From Phototrophicaceae bacterium (GTDB taxonomy: Bacteria > Chloroflexota > Anaerolineae > Aggregatilineales > Phototrophicaceae): 64,000 nt of DNA. Position 1 is the stretch's first letter, and the number at the start of each line of letters is the position of its first letter. The position numbers were made by a program, and so were the translations under genes. The notes beneath the pieces were generated by a model, which did no database searches, was not told the origin of the DNA, and saw nothing but the letters and a program-made list of their open reading frames with translations. The stretch covers positions 4,163,848 to 4,227,847 of the forward strand of contig OZ242316.1 of the NCBI GenBank assembly GCA_965207905.1, in the 5' to 3' direction. Shown here piece by piece: positions 7,250 to 45,692 of this stretch.

Positions 7250-8430
7250 GCCACGACCGCCTCGATCATGTCGTCCGTAATGCGCAGCATGTCCAGCGCG
7301 TTCTCGGCGAAGATGCGCCGGTGCATGCGCTCGTCCAGCTTGGGCAGCACGGTCACCGGGTCATTCCAATCGAAATGCGGGAAGTCGGTGCAGAATATCA
7401 GCGTCTCATCGGCGTGTAACATCTCCAGCATTTGGTAGACCTGCTCGGTCCGCGGCGGCTCGTGCATGGGCTGGGAGCCGATGCGGATATGCTCGCGGAA
7501 GTATTCGCTGGGCGGGCGCTTCAGCCAGGGCGTCTGGTCGCCGATGGCTTTCCAGTCCGTGTCCATGTGCCACATCAGCGGCACGGCCCACATTTGCTGC
7601 ACTTCGATCAGCGCGACTTTGAAGTTGGGGAACTTCTCGAAGACGCCCTCGACGATCAGCGAAGCCGCCTGCGCGCTGGCCACGCTGGGGCGGGTCATGC
7701 GGTTTTCCATGTAATAGCTGGGGAAGCCGACCGGCGTGAGCGTCGAACCCGGGCTGCCGCCGCCGATATGCGAGACCACGGGCAAATCGTGCTCGGCGCA
7801 GGCCTCCCAGATGGGATGGTACCTGCGCTTGCCGAAAAGGTCCGGCGTCTGCATCGGCATCATGACGGCGGCCGTGTCTTTGCGATGCGCCAGGCGGTGA
7901 ATCTCCTTGACCGCCAGCGCCGGGTCGTTGGGCGCGACCAGGATGGCGTTGACCACGCGCGGGTCTTTGTCCAGCCAGTGCTCGATCGTCCAGTCGTTGA
8001 ATGCCGTGCAGAGCGCCGCCGCCCAATCGGGATCGGGCAAGCCGGCCACGGCCAGGAAGACAGGCGGGCCCGTCAGCAGGGCGAAGTCGATATTCCAGCG
8101 GTCCAGCAGCTCTTTCTGCGTGAATTCCAGCGAGAAGTTGAAGTCCCGCTCTTGCAGCGCCGGGTCCTTGATATCGGGGCGCGTACGGCGGAAGGGCGTA
8201 TTGGCATAGCCGCTGCCCGGCAGGTGCAGCCCCTGATCGAGCAGGTGCTCCTGATAGAACTTGGGCAAATAGGGCAGCAGCTGATGCGGATCGTGGAAGT
8301 TGTGGTGGACGTCGCAATCGACCAGCTTGACGCGGTCGGCGGGTTTGCCTGTCCAGCCCGGTGCGGCGATGGGCGCGGCGCCTTTCTTGCCGATGTGGAT
8401 CTGTGCGAGTTTATCGGCGGTTTGAGTCAT
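7246..8430 (-). CDS. Amidohydrolase family 2 (ACMSD-like metal-dependent hydrolase/decarboxylase)
   Basis: The ORF track starts at a TTG at 8442. I prefer ATG 8430 (MTQTADKLAQIHIG), which is preceded by GGAGGGA. It has the VDCDVHHNF metal-binding motif and a family-typical length. Confidence 0.75.
   Translation of the reverse strand: MTQTADKLAQIHIGKKGAAPIAAPGWTGKPADRVKLVDCDVHHNFHDPHQLLPYLPKFYQEHLLDQGLHLPGSGYANTPFRRTRPDIKDPALQERDFNFSLEFTQKELLDRWNIDFALLTGPPVFLAVAGLPDPDWAAALCTAFNDWTIEHWLDKDPRVVNAILVAPNDPALAVKEIHRLAHRKDTAAVMMPMQTPDLFGKRRYHPIWEACAEHDLPVVSHIGGGSPGSTLTPVGFPSYYMENRMTRPSVASAQAASLIVEGVFEKFPNFKVALIEVQQMWAVPLMWHMDTDWKAIGDQTPWLKRPPSEYFREHIRIGSQPMHEPPRTEQVYQMLEMLHADETLIFCTDFPHFDWNDPVTVLPKLDERMHRRIFAENALDMLRITDDMIEAVVA
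8375..8430. repeat. Direct repeat copy 1: the first ~55 nt of the amidohydrolase CDS, duplicated at 9103-9152
   Basis: gcggcgcc...gccgatgtggatctgtgcgagtttatcgg...cat recurs at 9103-9152. The shared blocks are gcggcgcc, gccgatgtggat and gcgagttt, about 80% identical by eye. Confidence 0.75.
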
Positions 8431-8626
8431 ATCTCCCTCCAATGTCTCCCCGCAGCCTGAGAGCAGGAGAGAATACTTGAACCGTGGCCTATGCCGTAAT
8501 TCAAAACAACCCAGGCCATCAGGCGCAAATCAGATGCGAGAGGGCCCAACACAGAACTTGATGAGAGCATATGGTGCGGTTATGTTGCCCGCCTTTCTGA
8601 TGTTGGGTTACCAGTTGCCGTGCCCC

Positions 8627-8983
8627 TTAGGCCGCGGAGTCGGCTTCGCTTTGGGACGCAAATCGATCCTCGCGACCTTCAAACCTGCCTTCCAGCCGCG
8701 CCAGGCGTTGGTTGCTGTCGTCAACTTTTGTCTCGACAGTTTCGATTCTTTTCTCCAACCTCTGAATGTCGTTTTTGAGTTCCTGGCGAGTCTCGGCGAT
8801 GTCGTTTTTGAGTTCCTGGCGAGATTCGGCGATGTCCCCTTTCAGTTCCCGGCGCAAGTCAGAAATATCGCCTTCGAGCTTGTCGCGCACTTCGGCGATT
8901 TTTCCGTCCAGACGCCAAACGGCGCCAAAGATTACCAGAATTGTAATGACAACGTCCAACGATAGCGATGTGTCCAGGGTCAT
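8627..8983 (-). CDS. Small membrane-anchored coiled-coil protein with 11-aa tandem repeats (function unknown)
   Basis: 118 aa. An N-terminal TM helix (LSLDVVITILVIFGAVW) is followed by DISDLRRELKG / DIAESRQELKN / DIAETRQELKN / DIQRLEKRIE repeats. The opposite-strand ORF 8477-8965 looks like a shadow of it. Confidence 0.55.
   Translation of the reverse strand: MTLDTSLSLDVVITILVIFGAVWRLDGKIAEVRDKLEGDISDLRRELKGDIAESRQELKNDIAETRQELKNDIQRLEKRIETVETKVDDSNQRLARLEGRFEGREDRFASQSEADSAA
8768..8899. repeat. 4 x 33-bp in-frame tandem repeat inside the coiled-coil gene
   Basis: The units are 8768-8800, 8801-8833, 8834-8866 and 8867-8899. The first two differ at only 2 of 33 positions. Confidence 0.85.
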
Positions 8984-9053
8984 TGGAATCCCTCTCCTTC
9001 ACGTGCCGCTAGTCTACAGCATTTGCGGCGGGTTGGCAAAGTTATCGCGCGGA

Positions 9054-9152
9054 CTACGACAGACGGTTGCTTTGAGGCAGCCAGGCATCAAGGCGAACTG
9101 AAGCGGCGCCTCTCATGCCGATGTGGATTTGAGCGAGTTTGTCGGGTTGCAT
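9054..9152 (-). pseudogene. Orphan 5-prime fragment copy of the amidohydrolase gene (direct repeat copy 2)
   Basis: The minus strand from ATG 9152 reads MQPDKLAQIHIGMRGAA..., against MTQTADKLAQIHIGKKGAA in the intact gene at 8430. It stops after 32 codons. Confidence 0.6.
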
Positions 9153-9205
9153 GGTTTGCCCCAGATTGCGCTAGCAGTCTCCGGATTACGAAACGCTCGT
9201 GTCAC

Positions 9206-10555
9206 TTAGCGACCCATTTTGCGGATTTCTTCTAGTTGCTCTTCGCCAAGCTCAAACCACCTGCCTTTTCGGCGCTGCTGACGGTAGCGCTTGTGCAGGA
9301 AGCTTTTGAAGGACTGAGCATGTGCCGCTCGAACTACGCATTTGAATCTAATTGGCATTGAGGAAGCACGCAACTCACGTGGGCTGTTCAACTTACGCGC
9401 GCGCCAACTGTATCTGGTCCAACGCTTGGGCTGTCGACTACTCCAGATCTTCCTGCGCTCACCGCACTGTACGCCTTGTACGCCTTGTACGACACAAATA
9501 TAGCCAGCGTCACCCTCCAAGCGAGGGTATTCGCGGAAGCCCTCTGTCGGCAAGGTCTCAAGCCCAAAATGCGTCTTAGGACCCACGTAGAGGCTGCCGT
9601 GAACAAAAGCCCCTTTAGCCGACTGCTTAAATTCTCCGAGCTCTTCCTGTGTCAGTTCAACCCATTCGGTTCCATTCTTGCGTTCTGACGGCGACAGTAG
9701 CGATTCCACTGCCTTTTTGATTTTGTCTACCTTCAAGATCAAGACGATCTCTAGCGGAAAACGAAGCGACGTTTCCAGAAATGCCGCCTCAATGGAATCC
9801 ACGGGATGATCGTCAAAAAAGATCTTGCTCCGCCGGGCATCGTTGTCTCGAATGATGCAAATGTATCCAGACTTGCCCTTCGCCTTTGGTAGGTCGCGGT
9901 AATTCTTGTCCAGAACGCTTTCCCACTCCCAATCCAATTCGGGAATAGTCGAAAAGTCATCGAATTCGGATTCAGGTTCAACAGGATCATCTACTTCGTC
10001 AGCTTGCGTTTGTTTGGACTGCACGTTGACAAACATTGTCTTTGCCAACGCCTTTGCATGTTTGAACAGCTGTTTCCCTAACTCGAGGATTTCTTCGCCG
10101 ACTGGCGCCATTCCAAGAGAGTCTCCTGTAACGGCAATTACTAGCGCGGCGATAACAGATATCTCACGGCTCCTACGCTGATTTAGGGTGAACCACTGGC
10201 CTCTTCTAGTGCCCCTTGCGTAAGCTTTCCGCAGCTTTTTCTCCAAGGCACTTGCGTCCTTCGCCGGAATGATTAATACAAAATCCTGAGACTCTCCCAT
10301 ATGTGAGCGCAGTTGACTATCACGCCAGGGTGGTCTAGCGCGGTAGCCAGACTTGAATCGCTCGCCATTTGACTTATCTTTGATTACATAGACAAAACCT
10401 GCGTTGCCAGACTGTTCGGGCCTGTTGTTGCTGTCAGCATTTGCCAATGAACCATCAAATTGTCTTAGAATTTCAAGGATAAAGCGGATTGCTGGAAAGT
10501 GAATGCGCGCCTCGTTGGCGATTGCGACAGCTTGTAAGAATGCTCTCCAATTCAT
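9206..10555 (-). CDS. Hypothetical protein with three tandem GIY-YIG-superfamily (T5orf172/MUG113-like) modules
   Basis: 449 aa. Three segments each begin G[FY][VI][YC][VI][IV] and end in a basic stretch plus (Q/E/R)W(F/V)(T/E)L. They are aa 53-126 (GFVYVIKDK...RGQWFTL), 230-305 (GYICIIRDN...GTEWVEL) and 351-440 (GYICVVQGV...KGRWFEL). Confidence 0.45.
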   Translation of the reverse strand: MNWRAFLQAVAIANEARIHFPAIRFILEILRQFDGSLANADSNNRPEQSGNAGFVYVIKDKSNGERFKSGYRARPPWRDSQLRSHMGESQDFVLIIPAKDASALEKKLRKAYARGTRRGQWFTLNQRRSREISVIAALVIAVTGDSLGMAPVGEEILELGKQLFKHAKALAKTMFVNVQSKQTQADEVDDPVEPESEFDDFSTIPELDWEWESVLDKNYRDLPKAKGKSGYICIIRDNDARRSKIFFDDHPVDSIEAAFLETSLRFPLEIVLILKVDKIKKAVESLLSPSERKNGTEWVELTQEELGEFKQSAKGAFVHGSLYVGPKTHFGLETLPTEGFREYPRLEGDAGYICVVQGVQGVQCGERRKIWSSRQPKRWTRYSWRARKLNSPRELRASSMPIRFKCVVRAAHAQSFKSFLHKRYRQQRRKGRWFELGEEQLEEIRKMGR

Positions 10556-10622: not shown

Positions 10623-11624
10623 TTACCCCGGCCGCAGCTCGCCCAGCGACCGCTCGCCTTGCTGAATGTAGCCCGCCACCGGGCTCTCAATGCGTCCGTA
10701 GGCATTCCAGATTTTGAAGCCCAGAAGCGCCAGCAAGTCGTCGTCCGCTTCCGCCACTACCTCGGGCGCGGTGGCCATGGTGAAGTTGACCTGTGTGCGG
10801 AATTGCGGCGCCACAAAAGTCGTCAGCACACCCAGCCGCTGCTGATCGCTGACGTTGGCGCCGGTGCCGTGCCAGATGCGCCCGTCGAAGAGCATGGCGC
10901 TGCCGGCCACGCCTTCTGCCGGAATGCTGACCACATCCTTGTCGCGCTCGGCATCGGGGCGGCGGCCGTAGAGGTGGCTGCGCGGCACGATGCGGGTGGC
11001 GCCGATTTTCTCCGTGAAGTCGTTGAGCATCCACATGACGTTGACGACCACAGGCGGCGCGATCATGGGCGGGTGGTCATCGACGCGGTTGCTTAGCTCG
11101 CGCGTCAGTGAGCCGGCCGGCACCGGATTGGGGTTGCGATGGATCGGCTCGGGCATCCACCACTGGTCGGTGTGCAGGTTCATGGCGATGCCGCCCGGCT
11201 TGGCAATGTTGGCGCCGTAGCTGGAGAGCAGATAATCCGCGCCTAATACGTGCCCGACGACCGCGCGCATGGTCTTCTGCGCCAGCAGTTCGCGCCAGAT
11301 CGCGCCCTTGTTGATCAGCATCCAGACGCGCTGGTTGACGCCGCCGGCTTTGGCGGAGAAAGCCTCGCGCCGGACGCGCCCCTCGTCGTCGGTGAATTGG
11401 CCCCACTGTTGTTTGGCGCCGCCGTCTTCAAAGGCGTTGCCGCCTTCAAGTTCCGCCTGCGCCTGTTCCATCAAGCGTTGCTTTGCCGCGGAAAGCTGGT
11501 CGGGGGTGATCGCGTTTTTCATCAGGCAGTAGCCGAATTCGTCGATGTTGGATTGCAAGGTGGCGACGTCGGTCGTCGGTTGTGGTAGTTCTTCGTGTGT
11601 CCAGTTGAACATAGAGTATTGCAC
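10623..11624 (-). CDS. Phytanoyl-CoA dioxygenase (PhyH) family Fe(II)/2-oxoglutarate oxygenase
   Basis: 333 aa with an HxD motif (NLHTDQWW) and a distal His (DGRIWHGTGAN). Confidence 0.8.
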   Translation of the reverse strand: MQYSMFNWTHEELPQPTTDVATLQSNIDEFGYCLMKNAITPDQLSAAKQRLMEQAQAELEGGNAFEDGGAKQQWGQFTDDEGRVRREAFSAKAGGVNQRVWMLINKGAIWRELLAQKTMRAVVGHVLGADYLLSSYGANIAKPGGIAMNLHTDQWWMPEPIHRNPNPVPAGSLTRELSNRVDDHPPMIAPPVVVNVMWMLNDFTEKIGATRIVPRSHLYGRRPDAERDKDVVSIPAEGVAGSAMLFDGRIWHGTGANVSDQQRLGVLTTFVAPQFRTQVNFTMATAPEVVAEADDDLLALLGFKIWNAYGRIESPVAGYIQQGERSLGELRPG

Positions 11625-15295: not shown

Positions 15296-16165
15296 ATGAA
15301 GACTGCAACTGGCAATTTCCCGCTGGGCTGGCGGCGGCGCAACTTCGCCTGGGAGCAAGACCTGGACGGCATGATCGCCTGGGCGCTGGAAAACGACCTG
15401 GAAGTCATCGACTTGGGGCGGGATGCCGATGAGATCACCAAGACGGTGGCGGACGCCGGGCTGCGCGTCGGCTCGGCTGACTTGACCGTCTGGACTGAAA
15501 TGATGTCGCCCGACGCGGGCGCGCGCCGTGATGCCGTGGCGCGCAATGCCGAGTACATCCGCGATTGCGCGGCCGTCGGCGCCAAGACCTTCTTCATCTG
15601 CATGGTCCCGGAAGACCCGTCCCGCAGCCGCGCCGAGAACTTCGGTTACATGGTCGAAAGCTACAGCGCGCTGCGCTCAGCCTTTGAAGACAACGACGCC
15701 TATCTGGTGATCGAAGGCTGGCCGGGGCCGGGCTCCCTGGTCTGCACCCCGGAGACCTACCGCGCCTTCATCGAGCAGGTGGGCTCGCCCAATATGGGCG
15801 TCAACTACGACCCGTCTCATCTGGTGCGCATGGGCATCGACCCGATACGTTTTCTCAAGGAATTTGTCGGCCATGTCTTCCACGTCCACGGCAAGGACTG
15901 CATGATCATCGACGAAAACCTGTATCAATACGGCAACCTGCAAGAGGCGACCTTCGCCGCGCCCTACAAGTACGGCGGTATGAACTGGCGCTATACCATC
16001 CCGGGTCACGGCATTTCCGATTGGAAGATCATCCTCGGTATCCTGCAAGACAGCGGCTACGACGGCTGCGTCAGCATCGAGCTGGAAGATCACTACTATG
16101 ACGACACGGAATACGAGCAAAAACAGGGCATTTTGCAGGGCGTGAAATTCCTCGCCGGTTCATAA
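15296..16165 (+). CDS. Sugar phosphate isomerase/epimerase (xylose isomerase-like TIM barrel)
   Basis: 289 aa. YDPSHL, HVHGKD and SIELED are motifs typical of AP_endonuc_2 / TIM-barrel family proteins. Confidence 0.8.
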   Translation: MKTATGNFPLGWRRRNFAWEQDLDGMIAWALENDLEVIDLGRDADEITKTVADAGLRVGSADLTVWTEMMSPDAGARRDAVARNAEYIRDCAAVGAKTFFICMVPEDPSRSRAENFGYMVESYSALRSAFEDNDAYLVIEGWPGPGSLVCTPETYRAFIEQVGSPNMGVNYDPSHLVRMGIDPIRFLKEFVGHVFHVHGKDCMIIDENLYQYGNLQEATFAAPYKYGGMNWRYTIPGHGISDWKIILGILQDSGYDGCVSIELEDHYYDDTEYEQKQGILQGVKFLAGS

Positions 16166-16180
16166 TCCGGTCAAGTAATG

Positions 16181-16340
16181 CGTCGGGGCGAGCAGATGCT
16201 CGCCCGCAACCAACCCAAATAGTGTGTAAGGGCGAGCGGGAGGCTCAGCCACAACCAAGCCAAATAGTGCGAATGGGCGAGCAGGTGTCTCGCCCGCAAC
16301 CAAGCCAAATAGTGTGTAAGGGCGAGCCGGTGGCTCGCCC
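16181..16340. repeat. Array of four ~45-bp tandem units, each carrying a GGGCGAGC-loop-GCTCGCCC hairpin (REP-like)
   Basis: The hairpins are at 16186-16205, 16230-16250 (degenerate), 16275-16295 and 16320-16340. The inter-hairpin segment gcaaccaaSccaaatagtgNNNaWg is conserved while the loops differ. Solo hairpins of the same type lie at 17304-17324 and 49263-49282. Confidence 0.85.
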
Positions 16341-16364
16341 AAAGAAAAAAGAGGACTTCATACA

Positions 16365-24672: not shown

Positions 24673-24760
24673 TTATCTCCTATTTTCGACATAATGCGAC
24701 AATACTGGCACAGTCCAGGATCGTATTCAAGGTTTGCGAATAATCGGCATGTATGAAGGT

Positions 24761-24792
24761 TTTTTACCACAGAGACACAGAGACACAGAGAA
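24761..24792. repeat. CACAGAG-family repeat, left-end type (TTTTTACCACAGAGACACAGAGACACAGAGAA)
   Basis: 24773-24792 is the exact reverse complement of 25201-25220. 24761-24774 is the exact reverse complement of 26737-26750. Confidence 0.9.
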
Positions 24793-25196: not shown

Positions 25197-25200
25197 GCAT

Positions 25201-28935: not shown

Positions 28936-28936
28936 G
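28900..28936. repeat. 37-bp direct repeat DR1 (the 3-prime end of the PD40 gene)
   Basis: atccgcggcgatgtgacgaatggctgctgggtgtgag matches 30061-30097 at 34 of 37 positions. Confidence 0.9.
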
Positions 28937-28964
28937 ATTGTCGAGTCCCTTGCTTGGGCCCGCC

Positions 28965-29369
28965 TTATTCGACTTCCCAATCTTCGACGTTCAAGCCGGG
29001 AATCCGCTCAAACTCGCTGATGTTATGTGTAACTACGATTAATCCCCTGGCGCGAGCAATGGCGGCTATCAGCATGTCGTGTTTGCCAATAGGAGAGCCG
29101 CGCTTTTCCAGAAAAGCGCGAATGCCGCCATACTCTTCCGCGGCGTCGTCATCAAAGGGTATACTTTCGAATTGCCGCAGAAAGTCGTCTTGTTTGGCGC
29201 GCGAACGTTCCGGCGTCTGACTCTTGCTGGAACCATAATACATTTCGCCCTTCGTAATCGCGCTTATGACGATGTCTGAAGAGGACTTGCTGTTAACTTG
29301 ATCGCGAACGCGGGGTGCTCTGCCATTGATATAATTTATGCAAGCATTGGTATCAAGCAAGTATTTCAT
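28965..29369 (-). CDS. vapC: PIN-domain toxin VapC
   Basis: 134 aa with MKYLLDTNACINYI...ISAITKGEMYYG...HDMLIAAIARARGLIVVTHNISEF, which includes the PIN acidic residues. Confidence 0.9.
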   Translation of the reverse strand: MKYLLDTNACINYINGRAPRVRDQVNSKSSSDIVISAITKGEMYYGSSKSQTPERSRAKQDDFLRQFESIPFDDDAAEEYGGIRAFLEKRGSPIGKHDMLIAAIARARGLIVVTHNISEFERIPGLNVEDWEVE

Positions 29370-30043
29370 TCACGCCGATCTTCATTCTCTACATATTCCG
29401 GCGGATGCCATTCAATCGGGTCGTCAGCCAGGCTGCCATAAGTCCGCTCGACGAAATCCGCCCAAGACATCTCGTGATCGTCTGTCGCGCCTTCCCGTCC
29501 CGCAGCGGGAATTGCTTCATGGTCGGTGGCTTCGATCGCCCTCAGCGTTGCCGCGAACGCGGGATTCTGCGTATCCGTAAAGCGTTCAAGGCAAGCGTCG
29601 TCCCGAAATAGCGCCCCGTCGGGCAGGATGGCGCCTGCGAAATCAGCATCGACAACGTCTGCGTCAGCCAGCCGCGCTCCCAACAAGTTTGCCCGATGCA
29701 GATTCACATGAGTCAGATTCGCTCCCTCCAGGCAGGCAAAACGCAAGTCCGCCATACCCAAGTTTGCTCGGCGCAGGTCTGCGCTATTGAGACTTGCGCC
29801 ATACAGGCGCGCTTGCCTCAAATTTGCGCCTTGCAGGTCACTTTCGCGGAGATTTGCGCCATCAAGAACAGCTCCGGCCAAATTCGCCCGGCGCAGGCTG
29901 GCGCCCGCCAAGTTCGCGTCCCGCAAATCGGCGACCGGTGCATCCTCGTGGCGGTCACCAACCGCAATGGTCTGTTGCTGCGTGTTTATCACAATCAGTC
30001 TGCTCAGCGAATCTAGGCCATGTCGTTGAACTGAGTGTATCAC
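29366..30043 (-). CDS. Pentapeptide-repeat protein in the antitoxin position of the VapC module
   Basis: 225 aa with a GTG start. About 20 consecutive A(D/N)LxG-type pentapeptides are present (ANLAGASLRRANLAGAVLDGANLRESDLQGANLRQARLYGASL...). The C-terminal tail is MSWADFVERTYGSLADDPIEWHPPEYVENEDRRE. There is a 4-nt ATGA overlap with vapC. Confidence 0.75.
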   Translation of the reverse strand: MIHSVQRHGLDSLSRLIVINTQQQTIAVGDRHEDAPVADLRDANLAGASLRRANLAGAVLDGANLRESDLQGANLRQARLYGASLNSADLRRANLGMADLRFACLEGANLTHVNLHRANLLGARLADADVVDADFAGAILPDGALFRDDACLERFTDTQNPAFAATLRAIEATDHEAIPAAGREGATDDHEMSWADFVERTYGSLADDPIEWHPPEYVENEDRRE

Positions 30044-30060
30044 AGGTGGATTACGATTTC

Positions 30061-30097
30061 ATCCGCGGCGCAGTGACGAATGGCTGTTGGGTGTGAG
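30061..30097. repeat. 37-bp direct repeat DR2 (orphan copy of the PD40 gene 3-prime end)
   Basis: atccgcggcgcagtgacgaatggctgttgggtgtgag encodes IRGAVTNGCWV-stop, with no gene body in front of it. Confidence 0.9.
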
Positions 30098-34782: not shown

Positions 34783-34857
34783 TTTCACCACAGAGGGCGG
34801 AGGTCACGGAGGTTTTTTCACCACAAAGGGCACAAAGACACGAAGGTCACAAAGGGG
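34783..34857. repeat. CACAGAG-family repeat cluster, left-end orientation
   Basis: tttcaccacagagggcggaggtcacggagg is followed by ttttttcaccacaaagggcacaaagacacgaaggtcacaaag. 34813-34829 is an inverted repeat of 36623-36639 (16/17). Confidence 0.85.
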
Positions 34858-34896: not shown

Positions 34897-35871
34897 TTAC
34901 TGCATAGCGCGTTCTTTCCAGCGAACCGGCCCTAACTCTATCGGCAATGCACGAACAATTTCGTACAAACCGTCAAGATCATGCTGGATATCTTTCCAGA
35001 CGTACGGCTTAAGTAGGGCCGGTATCTCGGCCGATTCGGAAAACTTAAGCGCAATGATGGCGAACTTTTCTCCATACTCTCTCTTACGGCTCTTAGCATA
35101 GTTGATCTCGTCAGCCAAGATTCGTTCGTCTTTGAAGTCTTCTGTGATGAAGAAAACGACGGCACAACTTTCAGAGATTCCCCCGAAAATCCCTCTGTCG
35201 AGTTCCATTCCAGCATACATAGCGGGATCATCTAGCCACGGGTCGAAGCCCAATTGTTTGAGAACTTTGTGATATTTCTTTACTAGTTGTTTGTTTTCGG
35301 ATTTGTGACTTAGGAATATCCTTGTTTCATTCGTAGCCGGAATTCTTTCGATGGGAACAGCCTGCAATTCACGCGCTTCTTGAGATGGCATACCGATCGC
35401 TGCCTCCATTCTATCTCCCAAACTTAGGCAGAACGGCCTCACGACCAGCGAAAGAAAAAGTGACTTGCTTCCATCCATATCGCTCCAACGTGTGCGGCGA
35501 TCCTGCAAGTCTATGAAGTTCTGATCATGTTGGTTTGCATAGCCGTGGAGCAACTGGTATTGGAAGCTAAACTCTTCGTCCGGGTCGTCGGGAAATATCC
35601 AGATGCTACCGGTCTCCTTATCGAGTTTATCGTATTCGCTGTTCAGCCACGTTGTGAATCGGGCGGGTCCAGCATTTCTCATCAGAGGCGCTATAACTGA
35701 TTGCGCGACAGGATCTCGCTCCAAGAAGTTCAGCAGCGGGTGAAAATGATGGTCGAACTGCTCTATATCCTCGTTTATCAGTGCGTCTCGTCGCCTTTTG
35801 AATTGTCGTAACGTGTTGATCTGGGCGTCTCGTGTTATTTCGCTCACTTGGTGTACCTCATAGCAATACAT
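34897..35871 (-). CDS. TIR-domain protein with an uncharacterised N-terminal domain
   Basis: 324 aa. Residues ~183-305 (nt 34957-35325) read RIFLSHKSENKQLVKKYHKVLKQLGFDPWLDDPAMYAGMELDRGIFGGISESCAVVFFITEDFKDERILADEINYA, a bacterial TIR_2-like pattern. I recognise no motif in the N-terminal 180 aa. Confidence 0.75.
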   Translation of the reverse strand: MYCYEVHQVSEITRDAQINTLRQFKRRRDALINEDIEQFDHHFHPLLNFLERDPVAQSVIAPLMRNAGPARFTTWLNSEYDKLDKETGSIWIFPDDPDEEFSFQYQLLHGYANQHDQNFIDLQDRRTRWSDMDGSKSLFLSLVVRPFCLSLGDRMEAAIGMPSQEARELQAVPIERIPATNETRIFLSHKSENKQLVKKYHKVLKQLGFDPWLDDPAMYAGMELDRGIFGGISESCAVVFFITEDFKDERILADEINYAKSRKREYGEKFAIIALKFSESAEIPALLKPYVWKDIQHDLDGLYEIVRALPIELGPVRWKERAMQ

Positions 35872-36415
35872 TCTTTCTTGCGCAATATGGACAGTAGATC
35901 AAATCTAGCCAGCACGAAATGATTTTTATCGTCTCAGCACAGCACAGGAGTCGCACGACTTGCATATCGGGAAGCTCAGGTCCAGCTATCGGTTGCACCG
36001 AGATGGGCGATGATTCATGCGTAATCCGGATGAAGTCGTTTCTCCCGAATGAATTTGAAAGTCCATCAAACATGTTTCGAATTGACGGTTCTATGATGTG
36101 CCGAAACATCCACCTGTGCATGTATTCAGTAAACTCATCAGTATGCATATCTTGCTGAGCATCTGTATGTCCACAATAAGGACATGTCAATTCATCAAGT
36201 GTGTCTTCATTAACGTCTGAAGTTGATGAGACTAACGAATTTCCAGTGGTCTCGGCAAATATGGGTGCAAGCAACGTAGATAATTGTGATGGTTCGGTCA
36301 CGAGCTTGAAATGGAGTCCGCACGAGGCGCAGCCGCGTCGCATGTAACGGTCGCCGTCGAGCGAATACTCAATCTGAAATGTCCTAATGTCTGAATCGTG
36401 TTCGGACTCATTCAT
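35858..36415 (-). CDS. Hypothetical zinc-ribbon protein (Cys-knuckle pairs), partner of the TIR protein
   Basis: 185 aa with CASC (aa ~29-32), CPYC (aa ~78-81), CC (aa ~160) and a terminal CPYC. It overlaps the TIR gene by 14 nt. Confidence 0.6.
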   Translation of the reverse strand: MNESEHDSDIRTFQIEYSLDGDRYMRRGCASCGLHFKLVTEPSQLSTLLAPIFAETTGNSLVSSTSDVNEDTLDELTCPYCGHTDAQQDMHTDEFTEYMHRWMFRHIIEPSIRNMFDGLSNSFGRNDFIRITHESSPISVQPIAGPELPDMQVVRLLCCAETIKIISCWLDLIYCPYCARKNVLL

Positions 36416-36604: not shown

Positions 36605-36689
36605 TTCTTTGTGCCCTTTGTGCCTTTGTGGTCAAAAAAACCAATCCCCTAACTCGGTGCCCTCGGTGTACTCGGTGGTAAAGAAAAAA
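36605..36689. repeat. CACAGAG-family repeat cluster, right-end orientation (two units ending GTGGTCAAAAAAA and GTGGTAAAGAAAAAA)
   Basis: ttctttgtgccctttgtgcctttgtggtcaaaaaaa ... ctcggtgccctcggtgtactcggtggtaaagaaaaaac. Confidence 0.85.
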
Positions 36690-36725: not shown

Positions 36726-36748
36726 CAGCCCAAGTGGAGGACCGACCC

Positions 36749-37024
36749 ATGACCATCGATATCGCGGAAGACGTCGCGCTGCGCCTTGAAGCGCTCGCAA
36801 AAGCAAAAGACGCCGACATCAGCGACTTGCTGCGCGACATGATCGAGAGCTACGAGGACAAGGGCGACGCCAAACAGAAGCGCTGGGCGACAGGTGCGGA
36901 CTTTGCCAGAAACGCCAAAGCCGCAGGGCTGGCATCGCCCGAGCCGGTGGATACTTCAGCGCGCAGCCGCGAGATTCTTAGCACAGAGTTCGCAGACTAC
37001 TTGATACGCCGCGCCAACCGATGA
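36749..37024 (+). CDS. Ribbon-helix-helix (CopG/VapB-like) antitoxin
   Basis: The ORF track starts at 36734; ATG 36749 follows GGAGGA. MTIDIAEDVALRLEALAKAKDADISDLLRDMIE has the RHH pattern. It overlaps the PIN gene by 4 nt. Confidence 0.75.
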   Translation: MTIDIAEDVALRLEALAKAKDADISDLLRDMIESYEDKGDAKQKRWATGADFARNAKAAGLASPEPVDTSARSREILSTEFADYLIRRANR

Positions 37025-37434
37025 CCTTCATCGCGGACAGCAACTTTGTCTATGCGCTGTACAACGCCAATGATATCCATCATCAAGACGGGATGAGTTT
37101 GCTGTCTCAAAACTCGGAAGTTATGCTCGTGCCTGATGTGGTCCTGCCAGAAGTCGGTTATCTCATTGCGCGCGACATTGGCCACAGCGGAATGCCAACT
37201 TTCCTAGAGCACTTTATGCAGTTAGATGTTCGGCTTGAAGCGGTTGGCATGGAAGACTTGGCAAGAGTTCGCGATATTGTAAGCACCTATGCGGACGCCC
37301 GATTCGACATCGTAGACTGCTGTATCATGGCTATCGCTGAACGCCTGAACATCACGAGAGTCGCGACTTTCGACCGGCGTGACTTTAATATATTTCGCCC
37401 GCGCCACTGCGATTATCTTGAATTGTTGCCCTAG
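37021..37434 (+). CDS. vapC: PIN-domain toxin VapC
   Basis: 137 aa with FIADSNFVYAL...VLPEVGYL...DIVDCCIMAIAERLNITRVATFDRRDF. Confidence 0.85.
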   Translation: MTFIADSNFVYALYNANDIHHQDGMSLLSQNSEVMLVPDVVLPEVGYLIARDIGHSGMPTFLEHFMQLDVRLEAVGMEDLARVRDIVSTYADARFDIVDCCIMAIAERLNITRVATFDRRDFNIFRPRHCDYLELLP

Positions 37435-37447: not shown

Positions 37448-37571
37448 TTTCTTTGTGCCTTCGTGCCTTCGTGCCTTTGTGATCCAAAACATACCCTCTG
37501 TGCCCTCTCATTAACTCTGTGCCCTCGGTGGCAAAAGAAAAACACCTCTGTGTCTCTGTGCCTCTGTGGCC
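37448..37571. repeat. CACAGAG-family repeat cluster, right-end orientation (3-4 units)
   Basis: tttctttgtgccttcgtgccttcgtgcctttgtgatcc ... ctctgtgccctcggtggcaaaagaaaaa ... cctctgtgtctctgtgcctctgtggcc. Confidence 0.85.
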
Positions 37572-40400: not shown

Positions 40401-41558
40401 TCAGGTCGTATAGACGACAATTTTGAAGTCTTTGGGATCAACAAGTTGCCAGATTGAACCTTTCATCTGTAACATTCCAGTTACTGAAACGGTCTCCCAT
40501 TTCATATGCGCCCTATCTGCCTCAAAATAGTCATGCTTGTTAAGACGCATGCTTACCTTTCGACTGCGCTTTCTGCCAACAGTCCAATCAACAATAATCG
40601 CCCGGTCCTCCACAGTCTCGCTCAACGGGTCACCTGACGAGCTTAAGGCGATCACTCGGCCCTTGATCGTAACTCTTTGCTGAGGAACGAATCTGAGATA
40701 TTCTATGGCACTTTCTAGATACTTGAGGTGTTCACGCCCAAGACGAACGCGGTCAAAGTCTCTAACATCTGATGATGGCGGAAGCGTCTGAGACCAAGTG
40801 ATTGATAGTTCGTAAGGCGAGCTCAAGATGTAAATCATGTCACGAATTGCTTCGCACATTCTGGAATTGAATCCTTGCCCGTATTCCTTCTTCAGAAGCT
40901 CTTCATCCCGACCACTGAGTGCCTTAGCAGTGGCCTGCAGTCCGCGCGCGATCCTCTCTAACACACGACGTTCTAATGGTAGAATCCGAAAGTCCTCCCC
41001 GGGCAATTGATGTTGCTCGCGCTTGCTAATGTAACGCTTCTCTTGCCCCACAAGAGATTCAATCAATAGGCCGAAACTCCCCTCAAAAGTCTGGCCAAAC
41101 CGGAAGTGCTGTATCATTTTCGAACCAGTCGATAGCGGTTGCTTGAAATGGGCTTTGGCGTTACGCTCGGAACTCGCGGAATACTGAATAAGTTTCTTCA
41201 CATACCTCACATACTTCGAAGCTACATCATAAGGCAATGACGCATTGCTAGCGTTCTCCATAATGCGAACACGAAGTAAGTCACGGTCATGATAGCGGAT
41301 ATCGTTCGCAGTTGATTCCATTGTCTTGCGCTGTAGGGAAGAAAGTATCCTTATGGCGTGCTGAACATGCACGCGATAGTCTTCTTCTACGACATCTTTT
41401 GGCAATGCGATTTCAAAGTGCTTGCCCGACTTGCTCATTCGACCGTGAAAGACACGCCAACGCTCATTGTCAACTACGCGTTTCCAGCCATTCACCTCTA
41501 GGTAGGATGTCATGCGAGGAATCGCAAGATCCAGTTCCGCGATTTCTTTGTCAACCAT
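40401..41558 (-). CDS. Hypothetical 385-aa protein (possible HEPN-like RNAKAH motif), partner of the DUF4365-like gene
   Basis: No family recognised. A single Rx4H motif sits in SSERNAKAHF (nt 41148-41165). It overlaps the upstream gene by 8 nt (ATGGTTGA). Confidence 0.6.
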   Translation of the reverse strand: MVDKEIAELDLAIPRMTSYLEVNGWKRVVDNERWRVFHGRMSKSGKHFEIALPKDVVEEDYRVHVQHAIRILSSLQRKTMESTANDIRYHDRDLLRVRIMENASNASLPYDVASKYVRYVKKLIQYSASSERNAKAHFKQPLSTGSKMIQHFRFGQTFEGSFGLLIESLVGQEKRYISKREQHQLPGEDFRILPLERRVLERIARGLQATAKALSGRDEELLKKEYGQGFNSRMCEAIRDMIYILSSPYELSITWSQTLPPSSDVRDFDRVRLGREHLKYLESAIEYLRFVPQQRVTIKGRVIALSSSGDPLSETVEDRAIIVDWTVGRKRSRKVSMRLNKHDYFEADRAHMKWETVSVTGMLQMKGSIWQLVDPKDFKIVVYTT

Positions 41559-42078
41559 TAGGTCTGTACTCCGCCGCTTCCTCGAGTATCTGGTTCACAG
41601 CTGCTTGGTCGAAGACATTGCTTATTGGTATGCATACGCGTTTCGTCTCCTTGTTTGGAGATTTTGCTCCCAGGAGGCGGGCCCAATAGCAGCAGTTTCT
41701 AAGACACATGCAATCTCTACTAATCAGCAACCACTCTTTCTGGTCCTTTGGCATCGCAAACAGTACAAAAGCAACATAAGAACGCTTCGGATGTACCAAC
41801 TTGTTATAGGCATCTACTTTCATATCAAACTTTACGTGTGTTGGATTCTCCGCGTTTGGATAGAAAATGCAATCGGTTGATGCCTTCAGTTGGCATCGAA
41901 CGGGAGGGCCCGAGTCAGTAAAGGTCCCATTGTCATCCATGATTGCGCTTAGTGTGACATCTGTCCCATAGTCACTCGTGCCATCTATCTGCGATAATGT
42001 GGCTCCCGCTTGCGCAACAACGGCTCGGACATACGATAACTGTAGGTCTTGCATGATGTGTGTAAGTGGTCTGGGCAT
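41551..42078 (-). CDS. DUF4365-like restriction-endonuclease-fold (PD-(D/E)xK) protein
   Basis: 175 aa. LQLSYVRAVVAQAGATLSQIDGTSDYGTDVTLSAI...PVRCQLKAST matches my recollection of the DUF4365 pattern (D-Y-G-x-D ... Q-x-K). Not verified by HMM. Confidence 0.5.
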   Translation of the reverse strand: MPRPLTHIMQDLQLSYVRAVVAQAGATLSQIDGTSDYGTDVTLSAIMDDNGTFTDSGPPVRCQLKASTDCIFYPNAENPTHVKFDMKVDAYNKLVHPKRSYVAFVLFAMPKDQKEWLLISRDCMCLRNCCYWARLLGAKSPNKETKRVCIPISNVFDQAAVNQILEEAAEYRPNG

Positions 42079-42194: not shown

Positions 42195-42440
42195 TCACTC
42201 CTTGAGGAAACCCGCCGGCGGCTTATAGGGCACGTCCAGGTGCTTGATGATGGCATCCACCTTATCATTGAGTTCAGCGAATTGTCGCTGGGACCACTCA
42301 TGGTTCGCCGCGACCGTTTCATTCAGTCCCAAAAGCGCCGCTTCGTACGTGTCAATTCTGTCCAGAATGTCGTCCTGTCCGTCACGAACGCTTTGATATT
42401 CCTTTTCGATCCGCTTCAAGCATATGTCGGTTGTCGCCAT
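42195..42440 (-). CDS. Small coiled-coil protein, paralogue of 54040-54402
   Basis: 81 aa. MATTDICLKRIEKEYQSVRDGQDDILDRI...IIKHLDVPYKPPAGFLKE aligns with MLTDDIRLGRIEQEYQTVRGTQDQLMDRM...IMDHLQVPKRRTGFLKTDD. Confidence 0.55.
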   Translation of the reverse strand: MATTDICLKRIEKEYQSVRDGQDDILDRIDTYEAALLGLNETVAANHEWSQRQFAELNDKVDAIIKHLDVPYKPPAGFLKE

Positions 42441-42495
42441 GTCGCCTCCTCGTGTTCACGCCCAGTATAAGGGGACTGCGTCAGCCTGTCAAAAT

Positions 42496-42549
42496 GCCTC
42501 TGTGCCCTCTGAGTGTCCTCGGTGTACTCTGTGGTGAAAAAAGAAAAGG
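42496..42549. repeat. CACAGAG-family repeat, right-end orientation (…CTCTGTGGTGAAAAAAGAAAAGG)
   Basis: gcctctgtgccctctgagtgtcctcggtgtactctgtggtgaaaaaagaaaagg lies immediately upstream of ATG 42557. Confidence 0.85.
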
Positions 42550-42556
42550 CAAACCC

Positions 42557-44275
42557 ATGTCCCAAACCGCCAAACGCAGCCAAGATTTCTTCAGCGCCGA
42601 GGGCGTCAGCGGCCTCATCCGCCGCGCCTTCACCGCCGCCTCGGGCTACGAAAGCGACGACATGTCCCGCCCGCTCATCGGCATCTGCAACACCTACAGC
42701 GAGCTCAACCATTGCAACAGCCACCTGCGCGCCGTCAGCGAAGCGGTCAAACGCGGCGTGCTGCAGGCCGGCGGCTTCCCGCTCGAATTCCCCACTATCT
42801 CGCTGGGCGAGGTCTACCTCAGCCCGACCTCCATGCTCTGCCGCAACCTGGCCGCCATGGACACCGAGGAGATGATCCGCGGCAATCCGCTCAGCGGCGT
42901 CGTGCTGCTGACCAACTGCGACAAGACCACGCCCGCCGCGCTGATGGGGGCCGCCAGCGCCGACCTGCCGACCATCATGGTCAGCGGCGGGCCCATGCTC
43001 AACGGCCACTTCCAGGGCGAAATCCTGGGCGCTTGCACCGATTGCCGCCGCTACTCGGCCGAGTACCAGGCGGGTACGATCAGCGCCGAGACCTACCAGG
43101 GCGTCGAGAAGAATCTGGTGCGCAGCGCCGGTCACTGCATGGTGATGGGCACGGCATCGACAATGAACTCGCTGATGGAGGCGCTGGGCATGGCGCTGCC
43201 AGGCAATGGCGCCATTCCCGCGTCAGACTCGCGCCGTCTGCAATTGGCGCAGGCGGCCGGGCGGCAGATCGTCCGCCTGGTCGAGGCCGATATCCGCCCC
43301 TCGCAGATCCTGACCGCCGCTGCCTTCGACAATGCCATCACGCTGCTGAACGCGGTCGGCGGCAGCACCAACGCCATCGTGCACCTGCCCGCGATCGCCG
43401 GCCGGGCCGGCGTCGACCTGCCGCTCTCGCGCTTTGACGAGATCAGCCGCCGCACGCCGCTGATCGCCAATATGCGCCCGACGGGCGACTACCAAATGGA
43501 AGACCTCTTCTACGCCGGCGGCATCCCGGCCGTGCTGAAAGAGCTGCTGCCCCTGCTGCACGGCGACGCCCTGACCGTGACCGGCCGGACCATGGCCGAA
43601 AATGTCGCTGACGCCGACATCAGCAATAGCGATATCATCCGCTCGCTGGACAACCCGCTGCAGCCGGAGGGTGGCTTGAGCATCTTGCGCGGCAACCTGG
43701 CGCCCGATGGCGCGGTCATCAAACACGCCGCCGCCACGCCCGCGCTCTGCAATCATCGCGGCCCTGCCCTCGTCTTCAAAGATGCCGCTGATGTTGCGGC
43801 GCGCATTCACGATCCCGCCCTGGACGTCACGCCCGATCACGTGCTGGTGCTGCAGAACGCCGGGCCCATCGGCGGCCCGGGCATGCCCGAAATCGGCAAC
43901 CTGCCCATCCCACAGAAGCTGCTGGAAGCGGGCGTGCGCGATATGGTTCGCATCTCCGACGCCCGCATGAGCGGCACGTCATACGGCGCCATCGTCCTGC
44001 ATGTCGCGCCGGAAGCTGCGCTGGGCGGGCCGCTGGCGCTCGTGCGTGATGGCGATGAGATCGAGCTGAATGTGGCCGAGCGGCGTTTGCAGCTGCACGT
44101 CTCCGAGGCCGAGCTGGCGCAGCGCCGGGCCGAGTGGTCGCCGCCCCCGCCGGCCTACTCGCGCGGTTACGGCCAACTCTACTTGCGCAGCGTCAACCAG
44201 GCGCCGCAGGGCTGCGACTTCGATTTCCTGCGCGGCAGCGACCCGGCCGGCCCCGTCTGGCAGCCGAAGTTTTAG
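42557..44275 (+). CDS. IlvD/Edd family dehydratase (dihydroxy-acid or sugar-acid dehydratase)
   Basis: The ORF track starts at 42431 inside the repeat. The likely start is MSQTAKRSQDFFSAEGVSG (42557). It has CNSHL, TNCDKTTP and MVMGTASTMN motifs. Whether it is IlvD proper or a sugar-acid dehydratase cannot be told from the sequence alone. Confidence 0.85.
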   Translation: MSQTAKRSQDFFSAEGVSGLIRRAFTAASGYESDDMSRPLIGICNTYSELNHCNSHLRAVSEAVKRGVLQAGGFPLEFPTISLGEVYLSPTSMLCRNLAAMDTEEMIRGNPLSGVVLLTNCDKTTPAALMGAASADLPTIMVSGGPMLNGHFQGEILGACTDCRRYSAEYQAGTISAETYQGVEKNLVRSAGHCMVMGTASTMNSLMEALGMALPGNGAIPASDSRRLQLAQAAGRQIVRLVEADIRPSQILTAAAFDNAITLLNAVGGSTNAIVHLPAIAGRAGVDLPLSRFDEISRRTPLIANMRPTGDYQMEDLFYAGGIPAVLKELLPLLHGDALTVTGRTMAENVADADISNSDIIRSLDNPLQPEGGLSILRGNLAPDGAVIKHAAATPALCNHRGPALVFKDAADVAARIHDPALDVTPDHVLVLQNAGPIGGPGMPEIGNLPIPQKLLEAGVRDMVRISDARMSGTSYGAIVLHVAPEAALGGPLALVRDGDEIELNVAERRLQLHVSEAELAQRRAEWSPPPPAYSRGYGQLYLRSVNQAPQGCDFDFLRGSDPAGPVWQPKF

Positions 44276-44844
44276 CTGGGGAAGAGGCGCTGCAAGTCCA
44301 GCGTGAAACCGGGCAAGACGTTCTCGCCGCTCACGCTGCCGTCTTGCGCGACAAACTCGCTGACGGGCTGTCCTTCGGCGTCCGCGCGCCACACCTCGAC
44401 GCCCGCCCGCTCCGGCAAAACGAGCCACACCAGTTCGGTTCCGTTTGCCAGGTAGACCGCGGCTTTGCGGCGCTGTTCAGTCAGCGTGTTGCTTGGGGAT
44501 GAGATTTCGACCGCCAAGTCCGGCATGCGGGGGACGAACTTTTCGTGTTCGTCATGCGGCGCAGCCTGCTTTCGCAGAAAGGCGACATCGGGCGCAAGCA
44601 GTGTCTGGCGATCATCGGCGGGATAATAGGCGGATTCGACAGTGCCTTCGCCCAAGTCATGCGCTTCGGCGTAGTTCAAAAGAAAGCGGAAGATATGTCC
44701 TGCAAGTCGTCCATGTCTGTATCCCGGCGCCATATCCCAGAACAGCTCCCCATCAATGAGATAATAATGCTTGAGTTCATTTTCCGGCAGCTGCGCAAGC
44801 CGCCAGACGTCGTCAACTGTGTAGAGCCGCTCCTGAATCGCCAT
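44272..44844 (-). CDS. Uma2 family (DUF820) PD-(D/E)xK endonuclease, copy 1
   Basis: The likely start is MAIQERLYTVDDVWRL (44844). PDVAFL...PDLAVEISSPSN...K...Y is the Uma2 core. Its stop overlaps the convergent dehydratase stop (44272-44275). Confidence 0.85.
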   Translation of the reverse strand: MAIQERLYTVDDVWRLAQLPENELKHYYLIDGELFWDMAPGYRHGRLAGHIFRFLLNYAEAHDLGEGTVESAYYPADDRQTLLAPDVAFLRKQAAPHDEHEKFVPRMPDLAVEISSPSNTLTEQRRKAAVYLANGTELVWLVLPERAGVEVWRADAEGQPVSEFVAQDGSVSGENVLPGFTLDLQRLFPS

Positions 44845-44983
44845 GCTTGCCTCGCGACAATCTCTGAGTAAAGACAATTATAGCGCAATCCTCGCCCCGT
44901 CGGCAGAAGGGTCGGGTGCGCCAATGCGGCATTCATTTCCTGCGCGGGCGCGACCCGGCCGGCCCCGTCTGGCAGCCGAAGTC

Positions 44984-45556
44984 TTAGCTGGGGAAGAGGC
45001 GCTGCAAGTCCAGCGTGAAACCGGGCAAGACATTCTCGCCGCTCACGCTGCCGTCTTGCGCGACAAACTCGCTGACCGGCTGACCGTCGGCGTCCGCGCG
45101 CCACACTTCGACGCCTGCCCGCTCCGGCAAAACGAGCCACACCAGCTCGGTTCCGTTTGCCAAGTAGACCGCGGCTTTGCGACGCAGTTCAGTCAGCGTG
45201 TTGCTTGGGGATGAGATTTCGACTGCCAAATCCGGCATTCGGGGGACAAACTTCTCGTGTTCGTCAGGCGGCGCAGCCTGCTTGCGCAGAAAGGGGACAT
45301 CGGGCGCAAGCAGCGTCTGGCGATCATCAGCGGGATAATAGCCGACTTCGCCGGTGACTTCGCCCAAATCATGTTGTTCGGAGTAGATCAACAAGTAATG
45401 TCCGATGAGAATTTCGAGTCGTCCATGCCTGTATCCCGGCGCCATATCCCAGAACAGCTCCCCATCAATGAGATAATAATGCTTGAGTTCATTTTCTGGC
45501 AGCTGCGCAAGCCGCCAGACGTCGTCAACTGTGTAAAGCCGCTCCTGAATCGCCAT
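44984..45556 (-). CDS. Uma2 family (DUF820) endonuclease, copy 2
   Basis: It has the same N- and C-terminal sequence as copy 1. The patch RLEILIGHYLLIYSEQHDLGEVTGEVGY diverges from RLAGHIFRFLLNYAEAHDLGEGTVESAY in copy 1. Confidence 0.85.
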   Translation of the reverse strand: MAIQERLYTVDDVWRLAQLPENELKHYYLIDGELFWDMAPGYRHGRLEILIGHYLLIYSEQHDLGEVTGEVGYYPADDRQTLLAPDVPFLRKQAAPPDEHEKFVPRMPDLAVEISSPSNTLTELRRKAAVYLANGTELVWLVLPERAGVEVWRADADGQPVSEFVAQDGSVSGENVLPGFTLDLQRLFPS

Positions 45557-45646
45557 GCTTGCCTCGCGACAATCTCTGAGTAAAGACAATTATAGCGCAA
45601 TCCTCGCCCCGTCGGCAGAAGGGTCGGGTGCGCCAATGCGGCATTC

Positions 45647-45692
45647 ATATCCTGCGCGACAACGACCCGGCCAGCCTCTCTGGCAGCTGAAG
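45647..45692. repeat. Third, degenerate copy of the cassette boundary / dehydratase 3-prime end
   Basis: atatcctgcgcgacaacgacccggccagcctctctggcagctgaag compares with atttcctgcgcggcagcgacccggccggccccgtctggcagccgaag at 44223, about 75% identical by eye. Confidence 0.7.

Follow-up and report, generated by a model that had tools for sequence, protein, structure and literature searches.

How do small accessory genes come to lie between conserved genes, each insert flanked by two copies of the end of the gene beside it? The question is raised by a stretch of 64,000 nucleotides (nt), hereafter the window, from a bacterium of the Aggregatilineales/Phototrophicaceae group of Chloroflexota (contig OZ242316.1, positions 4,163,848 to 4,227,847). 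Within it, three cassettes are bounded by direct repeats of a gene terminus: the 5′ end of an amidohydrolase gene (case 1), the 3′ end of a gene for a PD40/Tricorn-like beta-propeller protein (case 2) and the 3′ end of an IlvD/Edd-family dehydratase gene, here called ilvD (case 3). The original prediction, which was made from the letters of the window, had proposed that these cassettes reflect a systematic integration mechanism acting at gene ends, and both BLAST and alignment confirmed that its three repeat sets are real. The best reading of the data, which we hold with moderate confidence, is a Campbell-type insertion in which each cassette brings a replacement terminus for the gene that it enters. 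Cargo and host genes were identified by a Pfam search of the open reading frames (ORFs) of the window, and the related loci used for comparison (designated by L numbers) are fetched stretches that were picked around known sites. When the window was searched against itself by BLAST for direct repeats 150-6000 nt apart, the repeats of the three cases were the strongest short ones, ranking after three gene-internal sets (the paralogues at 48.1k/49.3k, a second Uma2 pair and the internal repeats at 12.1-13.1k).

In case 2, the PD40 gene (27949-28935, + strand) ends in a 37-nt repeat at 28900-28936, and a second copy lies on the same strand at 30061-30097 (92% identity; E = 5e-10 in the local BLAST). 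Each copy comprises the final 11 codons of the gene and its TGA stop. The cargo segment between them (28937-30060, - strand) encodes a PIN (VapC-like) protein at 28965-29369 and a pentapeptide-repeat protein at 29366-30043. The same site is empty in the relatives L081, L082 and L084, where the PD40 stop lies 5 nt from the stop of an MFS gene. One relative, L085, has the PIN and pentapeptide cassette of the window, with a 38-nt copy and the same inner boundary, and another, L083, has other cargo and no repeat copy.

Comparison with an empty site reveals which of the two copies is foreign. Near the site, both PD40 flanks of the window are mostly 94-100% identical to the empty-site locus L084 per 100-nt stretch, and the distal copy together with the MFS flank differs from it at 1 of 91 nt. 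This distal copy encodes the native 3′ end, IRGAVTNGCWV*, and is continuous with the native spacer and the MFS gene. The functional 3′ end, IRGDVTNGCWV*, is supplied by the proximal copy, in which GCA and TGT of the native allele give way to the cassette-type variants GAT and TGC; of these, TGC also occurs in L085, which bears the cassette. Proximal copy and cassette, 1161 nt together, are thus the foreign DNA. Since foreign variants are confined to these parts and the distal side is the empty-site allele, the alignment places the crossover at the inner edge, in ATCCGCGGCG, a block of 10 identical nt. The two copies share identical blocks of only 10-14 nt, and in three other loci (L013, L008 and L019) the copies have diverged by 18-25%. 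Because the identical blocks are so short and the copies so far apart, RecA-type or homology-primed integration, one of the routes that had been proposed, is unlikely. Separately, we note that the upstream partner of the PIN gene (28965-29369) is not the usual VapB antitoxin but the pentapeptide-repeat protein, of 207-225 aa; the stop and start codons of the two genes overlap, and the pair is kept in L085.

The 99% identity to L084 of the 100 nt directly upstream of the proximal copy also bears on a rival explanation, which combines one-sided homologous recombination with an illegitimate join during DNA uptake. In such homology-facilitated illegitimate recombination, known from work in Acinetobacter and pneumococcus, a linear donor that carries the 3′ part of the gene and the cargo anchors by homology in the gene body. 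The non-homologous end of the donor would then join at microhomology in the terminal codons of the recipient, whose own terminus would stay behind as an orphan. This process needs no recombinase and accounts for variable, motif-free inner boundaries, for an outer boundary at the stop or start codon, and for the pairing of a functional end of donor type with an orphan of native type, the copies being 18-25% diverged; it also predicts that the same hot spots should hold insertions both with a repeat copy and lacking one, as is seen. At the PD40 site, however, no donor tract is visible upstream, and the empty-site L081 has the same two differences from L084 immediately before the repeat. Furthermore, homology-facilitated illegitimate recombination usually deletes recipient DNA rather than duplicating it, and a duplication instead of a deletion requires pairing with two sister duplexes. 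The inner boundary shared by the window and L085 also indicates that the event is not frequent there. We consider this route unlikely. Searching the literature on it, and on Uma2/DUF820, turned up nothing specific.

Case 1 concerns the other end of a gene. The amidohydrolase gene (Amidohydro_2; 7246-8430, - strand, within a Pfam ORF at 7246-8442) has its true start at the ATG at 8430-8428; its orthologues begin MxQxxDKLEQIHIGKKGAAP. The functional 5′ end, consisting of this ATG and about 18 codons (8375-8430, - strand), recurs as an orphan 5′ end with an ATG of its own at 9103-9152 (- strand). The aligned portions, 8375-8417 and 9103-9145, are 88% identical over 43 nt (E = 1e-8, local BLAST); on the minus strand both copies reach their ATG (8430-8428 and 9152-9150), with a 6-nt indel past it. 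The encoded starts are MTQTADKLAQIHIGKKGAA for the proximal and MQPDKLAQIHIGMRGAA for the distal copy, which by a hand-framed count differ by three synonymous and two non-synonymous codons and a two-codon indel. The cargo is a 118-aa coiled-coil protein with 33-nt internal repeats (8627-8983, - strand). The coiled-coil cassettes of different sites are too diverged in DNA sequence for element ends to be defined by their comparison. In L090 the site is empty, with only 21 nt between the stop of the PhyH gene and the amidohydrolase ATG. The corresponding interval in the window contains a low-G+C accessory gene with a T5orf172 domain (9206-10555, - strand, Pfam), the orphan 5′ end and the coiled-coil gene, and no further repeat copy was found beyond the T5orf172 gene.

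Case 3 is an array with two cassettes. The ilvD gene (42557-44275, + strand, within the Pfam ILVD_EDD ORF at 42431-44275) ends in the first copy, R1 (44224-44275, + strand), whose stop codon overlaps by 4 nt the stop of a Uma2 endonuclease gene (copy A; 44272-44844, - strand, Pfam ORF 44272-44877). Next come a middle copy of the ilvD end, R2 (44936-44987, + strand), from which a weaker, degenerate likeness reaches about 25 nt further left, and a second Uma2 gene (copy B; 44984-45556, - strand, Pfam ORF 44984-45589). The array is closed by R3 (45647-45692, + strand; 85%), the outermost and, in the order of insertion events that we infer, the oldest copy, which is partial, has a 1-nt deletion and has lost its stop. 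A 712-bp unit is thus present twice, 44223-44981 matching 44935-45692 at 92% over 760 nt.

Close relatives of the window are metagenome-assembled genomes from the same group. A scan with the ilvD protein, limited to one genome per species, found L001 (OY760398), L002 (OZ220689) and L003 (OZ243937) at 96-98% ilvD identity, and matched more distant Chloroflexota as well. These relatives give the ilvD site a polarity like that of the PD40 site. The native end of L001 and the outermost copy of L002 both read TTTTGATGC, and the proximal copies read TTTTAGCTG, with the ilvD and Uma2 stops overlapping; R3 of the window has a CAGCTGAAG variant in common with the distal copy of L002, which runs into the native TTTTGATGC of L001. 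Distal copies had been described as slightly degenerate. That description suits only the old outer copies of arrays, and not the PD40 site, where the distal copy is the native allele and the proximal one is imported.

Across related loci, the ilvD site occurs in several states. It is empty in L051 and L034; it holds one Uma2 gene between two ilvD-end copies in L092, L094 and L004, and two Uma2 genes among three copies in the window, L002, L006 and L007. Other cargo occupies the same position elsewhere: a RelE-like toxin-antitoxin pair between two copies in L040 (69 nt, 90%), a HigB-like pair in L019 (Sphaerobacteraceae), and a 325-nt insert of unknown cargo between copies of about 130 nt in L008. 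L004 has a third copy after a gene for a 334-aa fn3 protein, and L001 an older partial copy beyond the gene for a FAD oxidoreductase. A copy of 75 nt in L095 matches the functional ilvD end at 100%, which points to recent exchange or duplication. The outer limit of the ilvD-end repeats lies at the stop codon or at most about 15 nt past it, and the inner limit is variable, giving copies of 24-135 nt. A metagenome scan with Uma2 returned a single locus, L092, and scans of viral contigs with the ilvD-end repeat and with Uma2 returned nothing, so that there is no sign of a phage vector.

Several observations concern the Uma2 genes and their neighbour. The paired Uma2 genes (44272-44844 and 44984-45556 in the window; also in L002, L006 and L007) are near-identical within each genome outside a central segment of about 35 aa. 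Its types are A (RLAGHIFRFLLNYAE..), B (RLEILIGHYLLIYSE..) and a third in L006; the window has them as A-B, L002 and L007 as B-A. This pattern suggests that the central segment may determine specificity, with its differences maintained as the remainder of the gene is homogenized. A second, older tandem pair of Uma2 genes (51403-52002 and 52061-52648, - strand; about 68% DNA identity) lies beside a dehydrogenase gene in the window and is also present in L003 and L051; no gene-end copies were found at this pair (51403-52648). In the window, the FAD oxidoreductase has a 16-codon C-terminal extension (45711-45761) that reads through a heptamer motif described below. No record matched this protein in an exact-sequence look-up. 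The oxidoreductase gene of L006 is followed, just past its stop, by a copy of one of its own internal C-terminal segments (VARLMAEWALSG) at 11580-11623, fused to a small ORF; this copy may be a relic of a similar 3′-end event.

The gene-end copies themselves carry information on how they diverged. For eight independent pairs, we classified the differences between proximal and distal copies in the frame of the host gene and compared each pair with 2000 simulations of random substitution. Synonymous differences outnumber non-synonymous ones in every pair: 11 to 1 in L013, 14 to 7 in L008, 8 to 3 in L019, 5 to 2 in L040, 5 to 1 in both L006 and L007, 3 to 1 in L051 and 6 to 3 in L020. Pooled by hand, the ratio is 57:19, or 75% synonymous, and the simulations gave P <= 0.043 in all eight pairs and P <= 0.01 in seven of them. 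The expected synonymous share is about 25% for random change and, by our own calculation, about 40% if one copy is constrained and a duplicate decays freely. An observed share of 75%, against 25-40% expected, argues that both copies diverged as the coding ends of functional alleles and that neither is a decayed target-site duplication.

This result bears most directly on duplication in situ, whether as a long target-site duplication, by template switch or by local tandem duplication, with later decay of the non-functional copy. Part of the evidence resembles such a process: the 712-bp units of case 3 and the identical 75-nt copy of L095 look like the outcome of tandem duplication or unequal exchange, and both copies in L040 carry host-specific hypervariable codons. 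The 57:19 synonymous excess, however, is far over the calculated value of about 40%. The cargo is single in cases 1 and 2 and in L092, L094 and L085, which tandem duplication cannot give, and at the PD40 site it is the orphan that equals the empty-site allele and the functional copy that is divergent. The copy length also varies over the whole range of 24-135 nt, even at one site, and no terminal inverted repeats were found at the cassettes of the three window cases. We thus regard duplication in situ as decidedly improbable. Ordinary tandem duplication had been named in advance as an explanation that would undo the idea of an integration mechanism; together with unequal exchange between the repeat copies it could explain part of case 3, with its two 712-bp units, but not the single cargo of cases 1 and 2. 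Target-site duplication by a transposon or insertion sequence (IS) was rejected on similar grounds, namely the variable copy length, the lack of inverted repeats, the coding-type divergence and the lack of a transposase in the cassettes.

The phenomenon is not confined to the three genes of the window. Six or more additional cases involve other genes or other orders of Chloroflexota, so that cassettes flanked by gene ends now span at least three orders and both 5′ and 3′ ends. In L051, the 3′ end of an 818-aa methylase-like gene flanks 321-aa cargo and the 3′ end of a 276-aa gene flanks coiled-coil cargo; in L013, an antitoxin and a PIN protein are encoded between copies of the 3′ end of a 507-aa gene; and in L020 (Caldilineaceae) an 845-aa gene has copies of its 5′ end, ATG included, on either side of a PIN gene. 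All proximal copies that we inspected complete the host ORF with its start or stop codon. The cassette units examined are 0.3-2.1 kb long, with one or two intact genes and no pseudogene debris. Self-BLAST for repeats of 28-250 nt spaced 250-4000 nt apart gave 39 direct and 6 inverted repeats in 388 kb of Phototrophicaceae-like loci, and 18 direct and 10 inverted repeats in 890 kb from other taxa, counts that are biased in that the loci were chosen around known sites. The expectation that three cases in one window go beyond coincidence is therefore borne out by the same sites being occupied in relatives with the same or different cargo, by the arrays at ilvD and by other gene ends, and the comparison of empty and occupied sites that had been suggested recovered empty, same-cassette and other-cargo alleles.

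In the Campbell-type reading, a discrete imported segment would bear its own version of the last or first 11-45 codons of a gene beside its cargo, and would join the chromosome inside the terminal coding region of the resident gene, by a conservative crossover at a short block of identity. The host gene would then read through the imported, functional terminus, and the displaced native terminus would remain as an orphan beyond the cargo. The segment would pass through a circular intermediate; for the PD40 cassette, the predicted circle junction is ...GGATTACGATTTC-ATCCGCGGCG..GGGTGTGAG-ATTGTCGAGTCC..., that is, the right end of the cassette, one repeat copy and the left end of the cassette. 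A new insertion at the gene-proximal copy would drive older cassettes outward. Unequal exchange between copies would amplify one cassette with two copies into two cassettes with three, and reciprocal exchange would precisely delete a cassette and so restore the empty site. Exchange of this kind accounts for the arrangements in the window (two cassettes and three copies), in L092 (one and two) and at the empty site.

Several points weigh against this reading. Neither a circular form nor an excision junction was observed. Pfam found no recombinase among all cargo ORFs of the window cassettes, as had been predicted, nor is one encoded beside any cassette, and among the window ORFs tested there is no tyrosine or serine recombinase, the only related gene being that for an IS110-type transposase at 25448-26677. 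Because the cassettes encode no recombinase, the crossover function would have to be supplied in trans, from elsewhere in the cell. The inner boundaries of at least nine repeat families, compared by eye, have no common motif, so one sequence-specific enzyme could not serve all families. The three window pairs taken alone show 5 synonymous and 5 non-synonymous differences (hand count), too few for a test. Furthermore, the Uma2 clade at 75% identity or more always adjoins ilvD, and its divergence is roughly in step with that of ilvD, so much of the ilvD pattern may stem from vertical descent combined with unequal exchange and not from repeated insertion. Finally, the rise of the first gene-end-bearing cassette at each site is left unexplained. 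A resemblance between the flank of the PD40-site cassette, GATTACGATTTCATCCGCGGCG, and the ilvD end, GACTTCGATTTCCTGCGCGGC, was judged too weak to be used, and when ilvD was scanned in sliding windows for mosaic donor tracts, there was no clear switch of nearest relative.

The lack of a recombinase could also mean that one has been lost. On this alternative, larger integrase-bearing islands or prophages would have shrunk by deletion to the present cassettes, with attL and attR on either side in the manner of cis-mobilizable elements (CIMEs), which are att-flanked units without a recombinase of their own. An att-like duplication of a gene end, with an element copy that restores the frame, is a signature of such elements, and other low-G+C islands do occupy the same intergenic positions. 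However, the units are compact (0.3-2.1 kb), with intact genes and no debris; gene calls or inspection of roughly 30 related loci found no integrase at these sites; and the at least nine target sequences would need equally many integrase specificities. Nor was an integrase-bearing partner, such as an integrative and conjugative element (ICE) or island, seen in about 450 kb of fetched related loci. This origin strikes us as improbable.

Small cassettes, often toxin-antitoxin pairs, between similar repeats also recall the arrays of chromosomal integrons, in which the repeats would be attC sites recombined by an integron integrase. The repeats here, however, consist of coding ends that belong to conserved genes and occur singly at empty sites. 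Folded as single-stranded DNA, the copies are no better than shuffled sequences on either strand (z of -0.3 to +1.5), the window contains no match to an integron integrase, and the arrays are headed by housekeeping genes. We therefore find an integron hardly credible. Overall, the distinction that the original prediction drew from transposon target-site duplications, integron attC sites and tRNA-targeting islands holds, given the folding, the copy lengths and a tRNA/tmRNA scan that found neither in the window; the shared sequence or structure that it proposed to seek at the cassette-internal junctions did not emerge, either as a motif or as an attC-like fold.

A more far-reaching possibility is a general cassette-exchange system in Chloroflexota that uses coding termini as attachment sites and has no cassette-borne integrase, an idea that we offer tentatively and hold to be rather doubtful. 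The units in circulation would each consist of a gene-end mimic and a small cargo of toxin-antitoxin, nuclease or defence genes. They would be inserted and excised through recognition of the mimic, and not of a fixed motif, by a function of the host or one unlinked to the cassettes, which could be a guide-dependent or annealing-dependent recombinase. If true, many loci would acquire integron-like arrays through such a system, and the scatter of solitary toxin-antitoxin and Uma2 genes among housekeeping genes would be explained. One candidate for a programmable recombinase acting in trans, the IS110-type transposase at 25448-26677, was considered, and nothing ties it to the cassettes. It lies in a low-G+C island (24753-26677) that also encodes a PDDEXK_3 nuclease (24753-25196); the transposase matches DEDD_Tnp_IS110 and Transposase_20. 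The two genes are separated by a 250-nt non-coding gap without an Rfam match, and the island is flanked by the heptamer motif.

Other features of the window concern its accessory DNA more generally. Its core genes, at about 0.62-0.68 G+C, are interspersed with many accessory islands of low G+C, and the equivalent intergenic positions in related genomes hold different accessory genes. One island (34897-36415) encodes a TIR-domain protein and a partner ORF, another (40401-42078) a DUF4365 protein and a 385-aa partner, and a third (9206-10555) the T5orf172 protein; these are probably defence genes. At the equivalent positions relatives have restriction-modification systems or ParE toxins.

The heptamer motif consists of three or four tandem YTYKGTG(YC) units, for example CTCTGTGTCTCTGTGCCTCTGTGG, followed by a run of A, in intergenic DNA. 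It occurs in the window at 24768-24790(-), 34822-34854(-), 36607-36677(+), 37451-37568(+), about 42505-42545(+) and about 45720-45760, and in relatives at 2989-3065 and 3447-3521 of L003, 7480-7510 and 7945-7975 of L040, and 9711-9760 of L051. It borders low-G+C islands and is also present in native spacers, being inverted around the TIR island (34.9-36.4k) and direct around a VapB/PIN pair (36734-37434) and the small cassettes of relatives. The motif could be of the repetitive extragenic palindromic (REP) type, a terminator, or a target for recombination or for an IS. A second repeat family is found at 16161-16341, where tandem 45-nt repeats between two genes each contain a GCTCGCCC...GGGCGAGC hairpin. 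Similar hairpin units lie around genes for solute-binding proteins in L090 (7650-7682 and 9217-9249), and this family is probably REP-like. An Rfam scan of the window gave no match.

The wider interest of these loci lies in the fact that it is poorly understood how solitary toxin-antitoxin, Uma2 and small defence genes, of which there are hundreds in Chloroflexota, cyanobacteria and similar bacteria, arrive between housekeeping genes. An imported replacement end together with an orphan native end is a readable footprint of insertion, which allows insertions to be dated and ordered, donor alleles to be named and precise losses to be recognized. If a function acting in trans is involved, it would move DNA into many chosen sites while leaving the target gene undisrupted. 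There is also a consequence for annotation, since a host gene may owe its functional end to foreign DNA, and the short orphan ORFs found beside cassettes are fossils of native ends.

The original prediction had placed these cassettes outside the known kinds of integration, but the logic is that of a known element. The Escherichia coli prophage e14 is flanked by icd, which runs into the prophage, and by the C-terminal pseudogene icdC (PMC13626634), and its excision alters icd mainly at synonymous sites (PMC13626634). Both e14 and phage 21 in icd thus resemble the cassettes in having a direct repeat of a gene terminus, an imported copy that keeps the frame, an orphaned native end and mainly synonymous differences between the two. 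The likeness extends to loss, in that excision of e14 restores a single copy and the PD40, ilvD and amidohydrolase sites are empty, with a single copy, in relatives. However, e14 is 15 kb long and has its own integrase and excision functions, whereas the cassettes are 0.3-2.1 kb and encode none, and unlike e14 they are found at both 5′ and 3′ ends of many genes, with copies of the same end punctuating arrays of unrelated cargo.

Such arrays have precedents of their own. In the tycheposon and tRNA-island arrays of Prochlorococcus, successive integrations push older elements outward and leave partial copies of the target gene between them (bioRxiv 10.1101/2020.12.28.424599). Unlike in tycheposons or ICE-CIME accretion, the targets here are the ends of protein genes, the units comprise one or two genes, and no integrase-bearing partner was seen. 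The cassettes do resemble CIMEs in being flanked by att-like repeats without recombination genes. With integron cassettes, they share the arrangement in arrays of small units between related repeats, often promoter-bearing toxin-antitoxin cassettes, but the repeats are coding ends instead of attC hairpins, there is no IntI, and the repeat that heads the array lies within a functional housekeeping gene. With homology-facilitated illegitimate recombination, they share foreign DNA beside a homologous anchor, the lack of an element-borne enzyme and a motif-free second junction; the difference is that no donor tract lies upstream of the PD40 proximal copy. Thus, a substitute end with an orphaned native end is already known from e14 and phage 21 in icd, and tRNA islands and tycheposons already provide examples of arrays separated by partial copies of the target. 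What is new here is the combination of minimal size, no integrase, both ends of many protein genes and arrays of mixed cargo in at least three orders of Chloroflexota.

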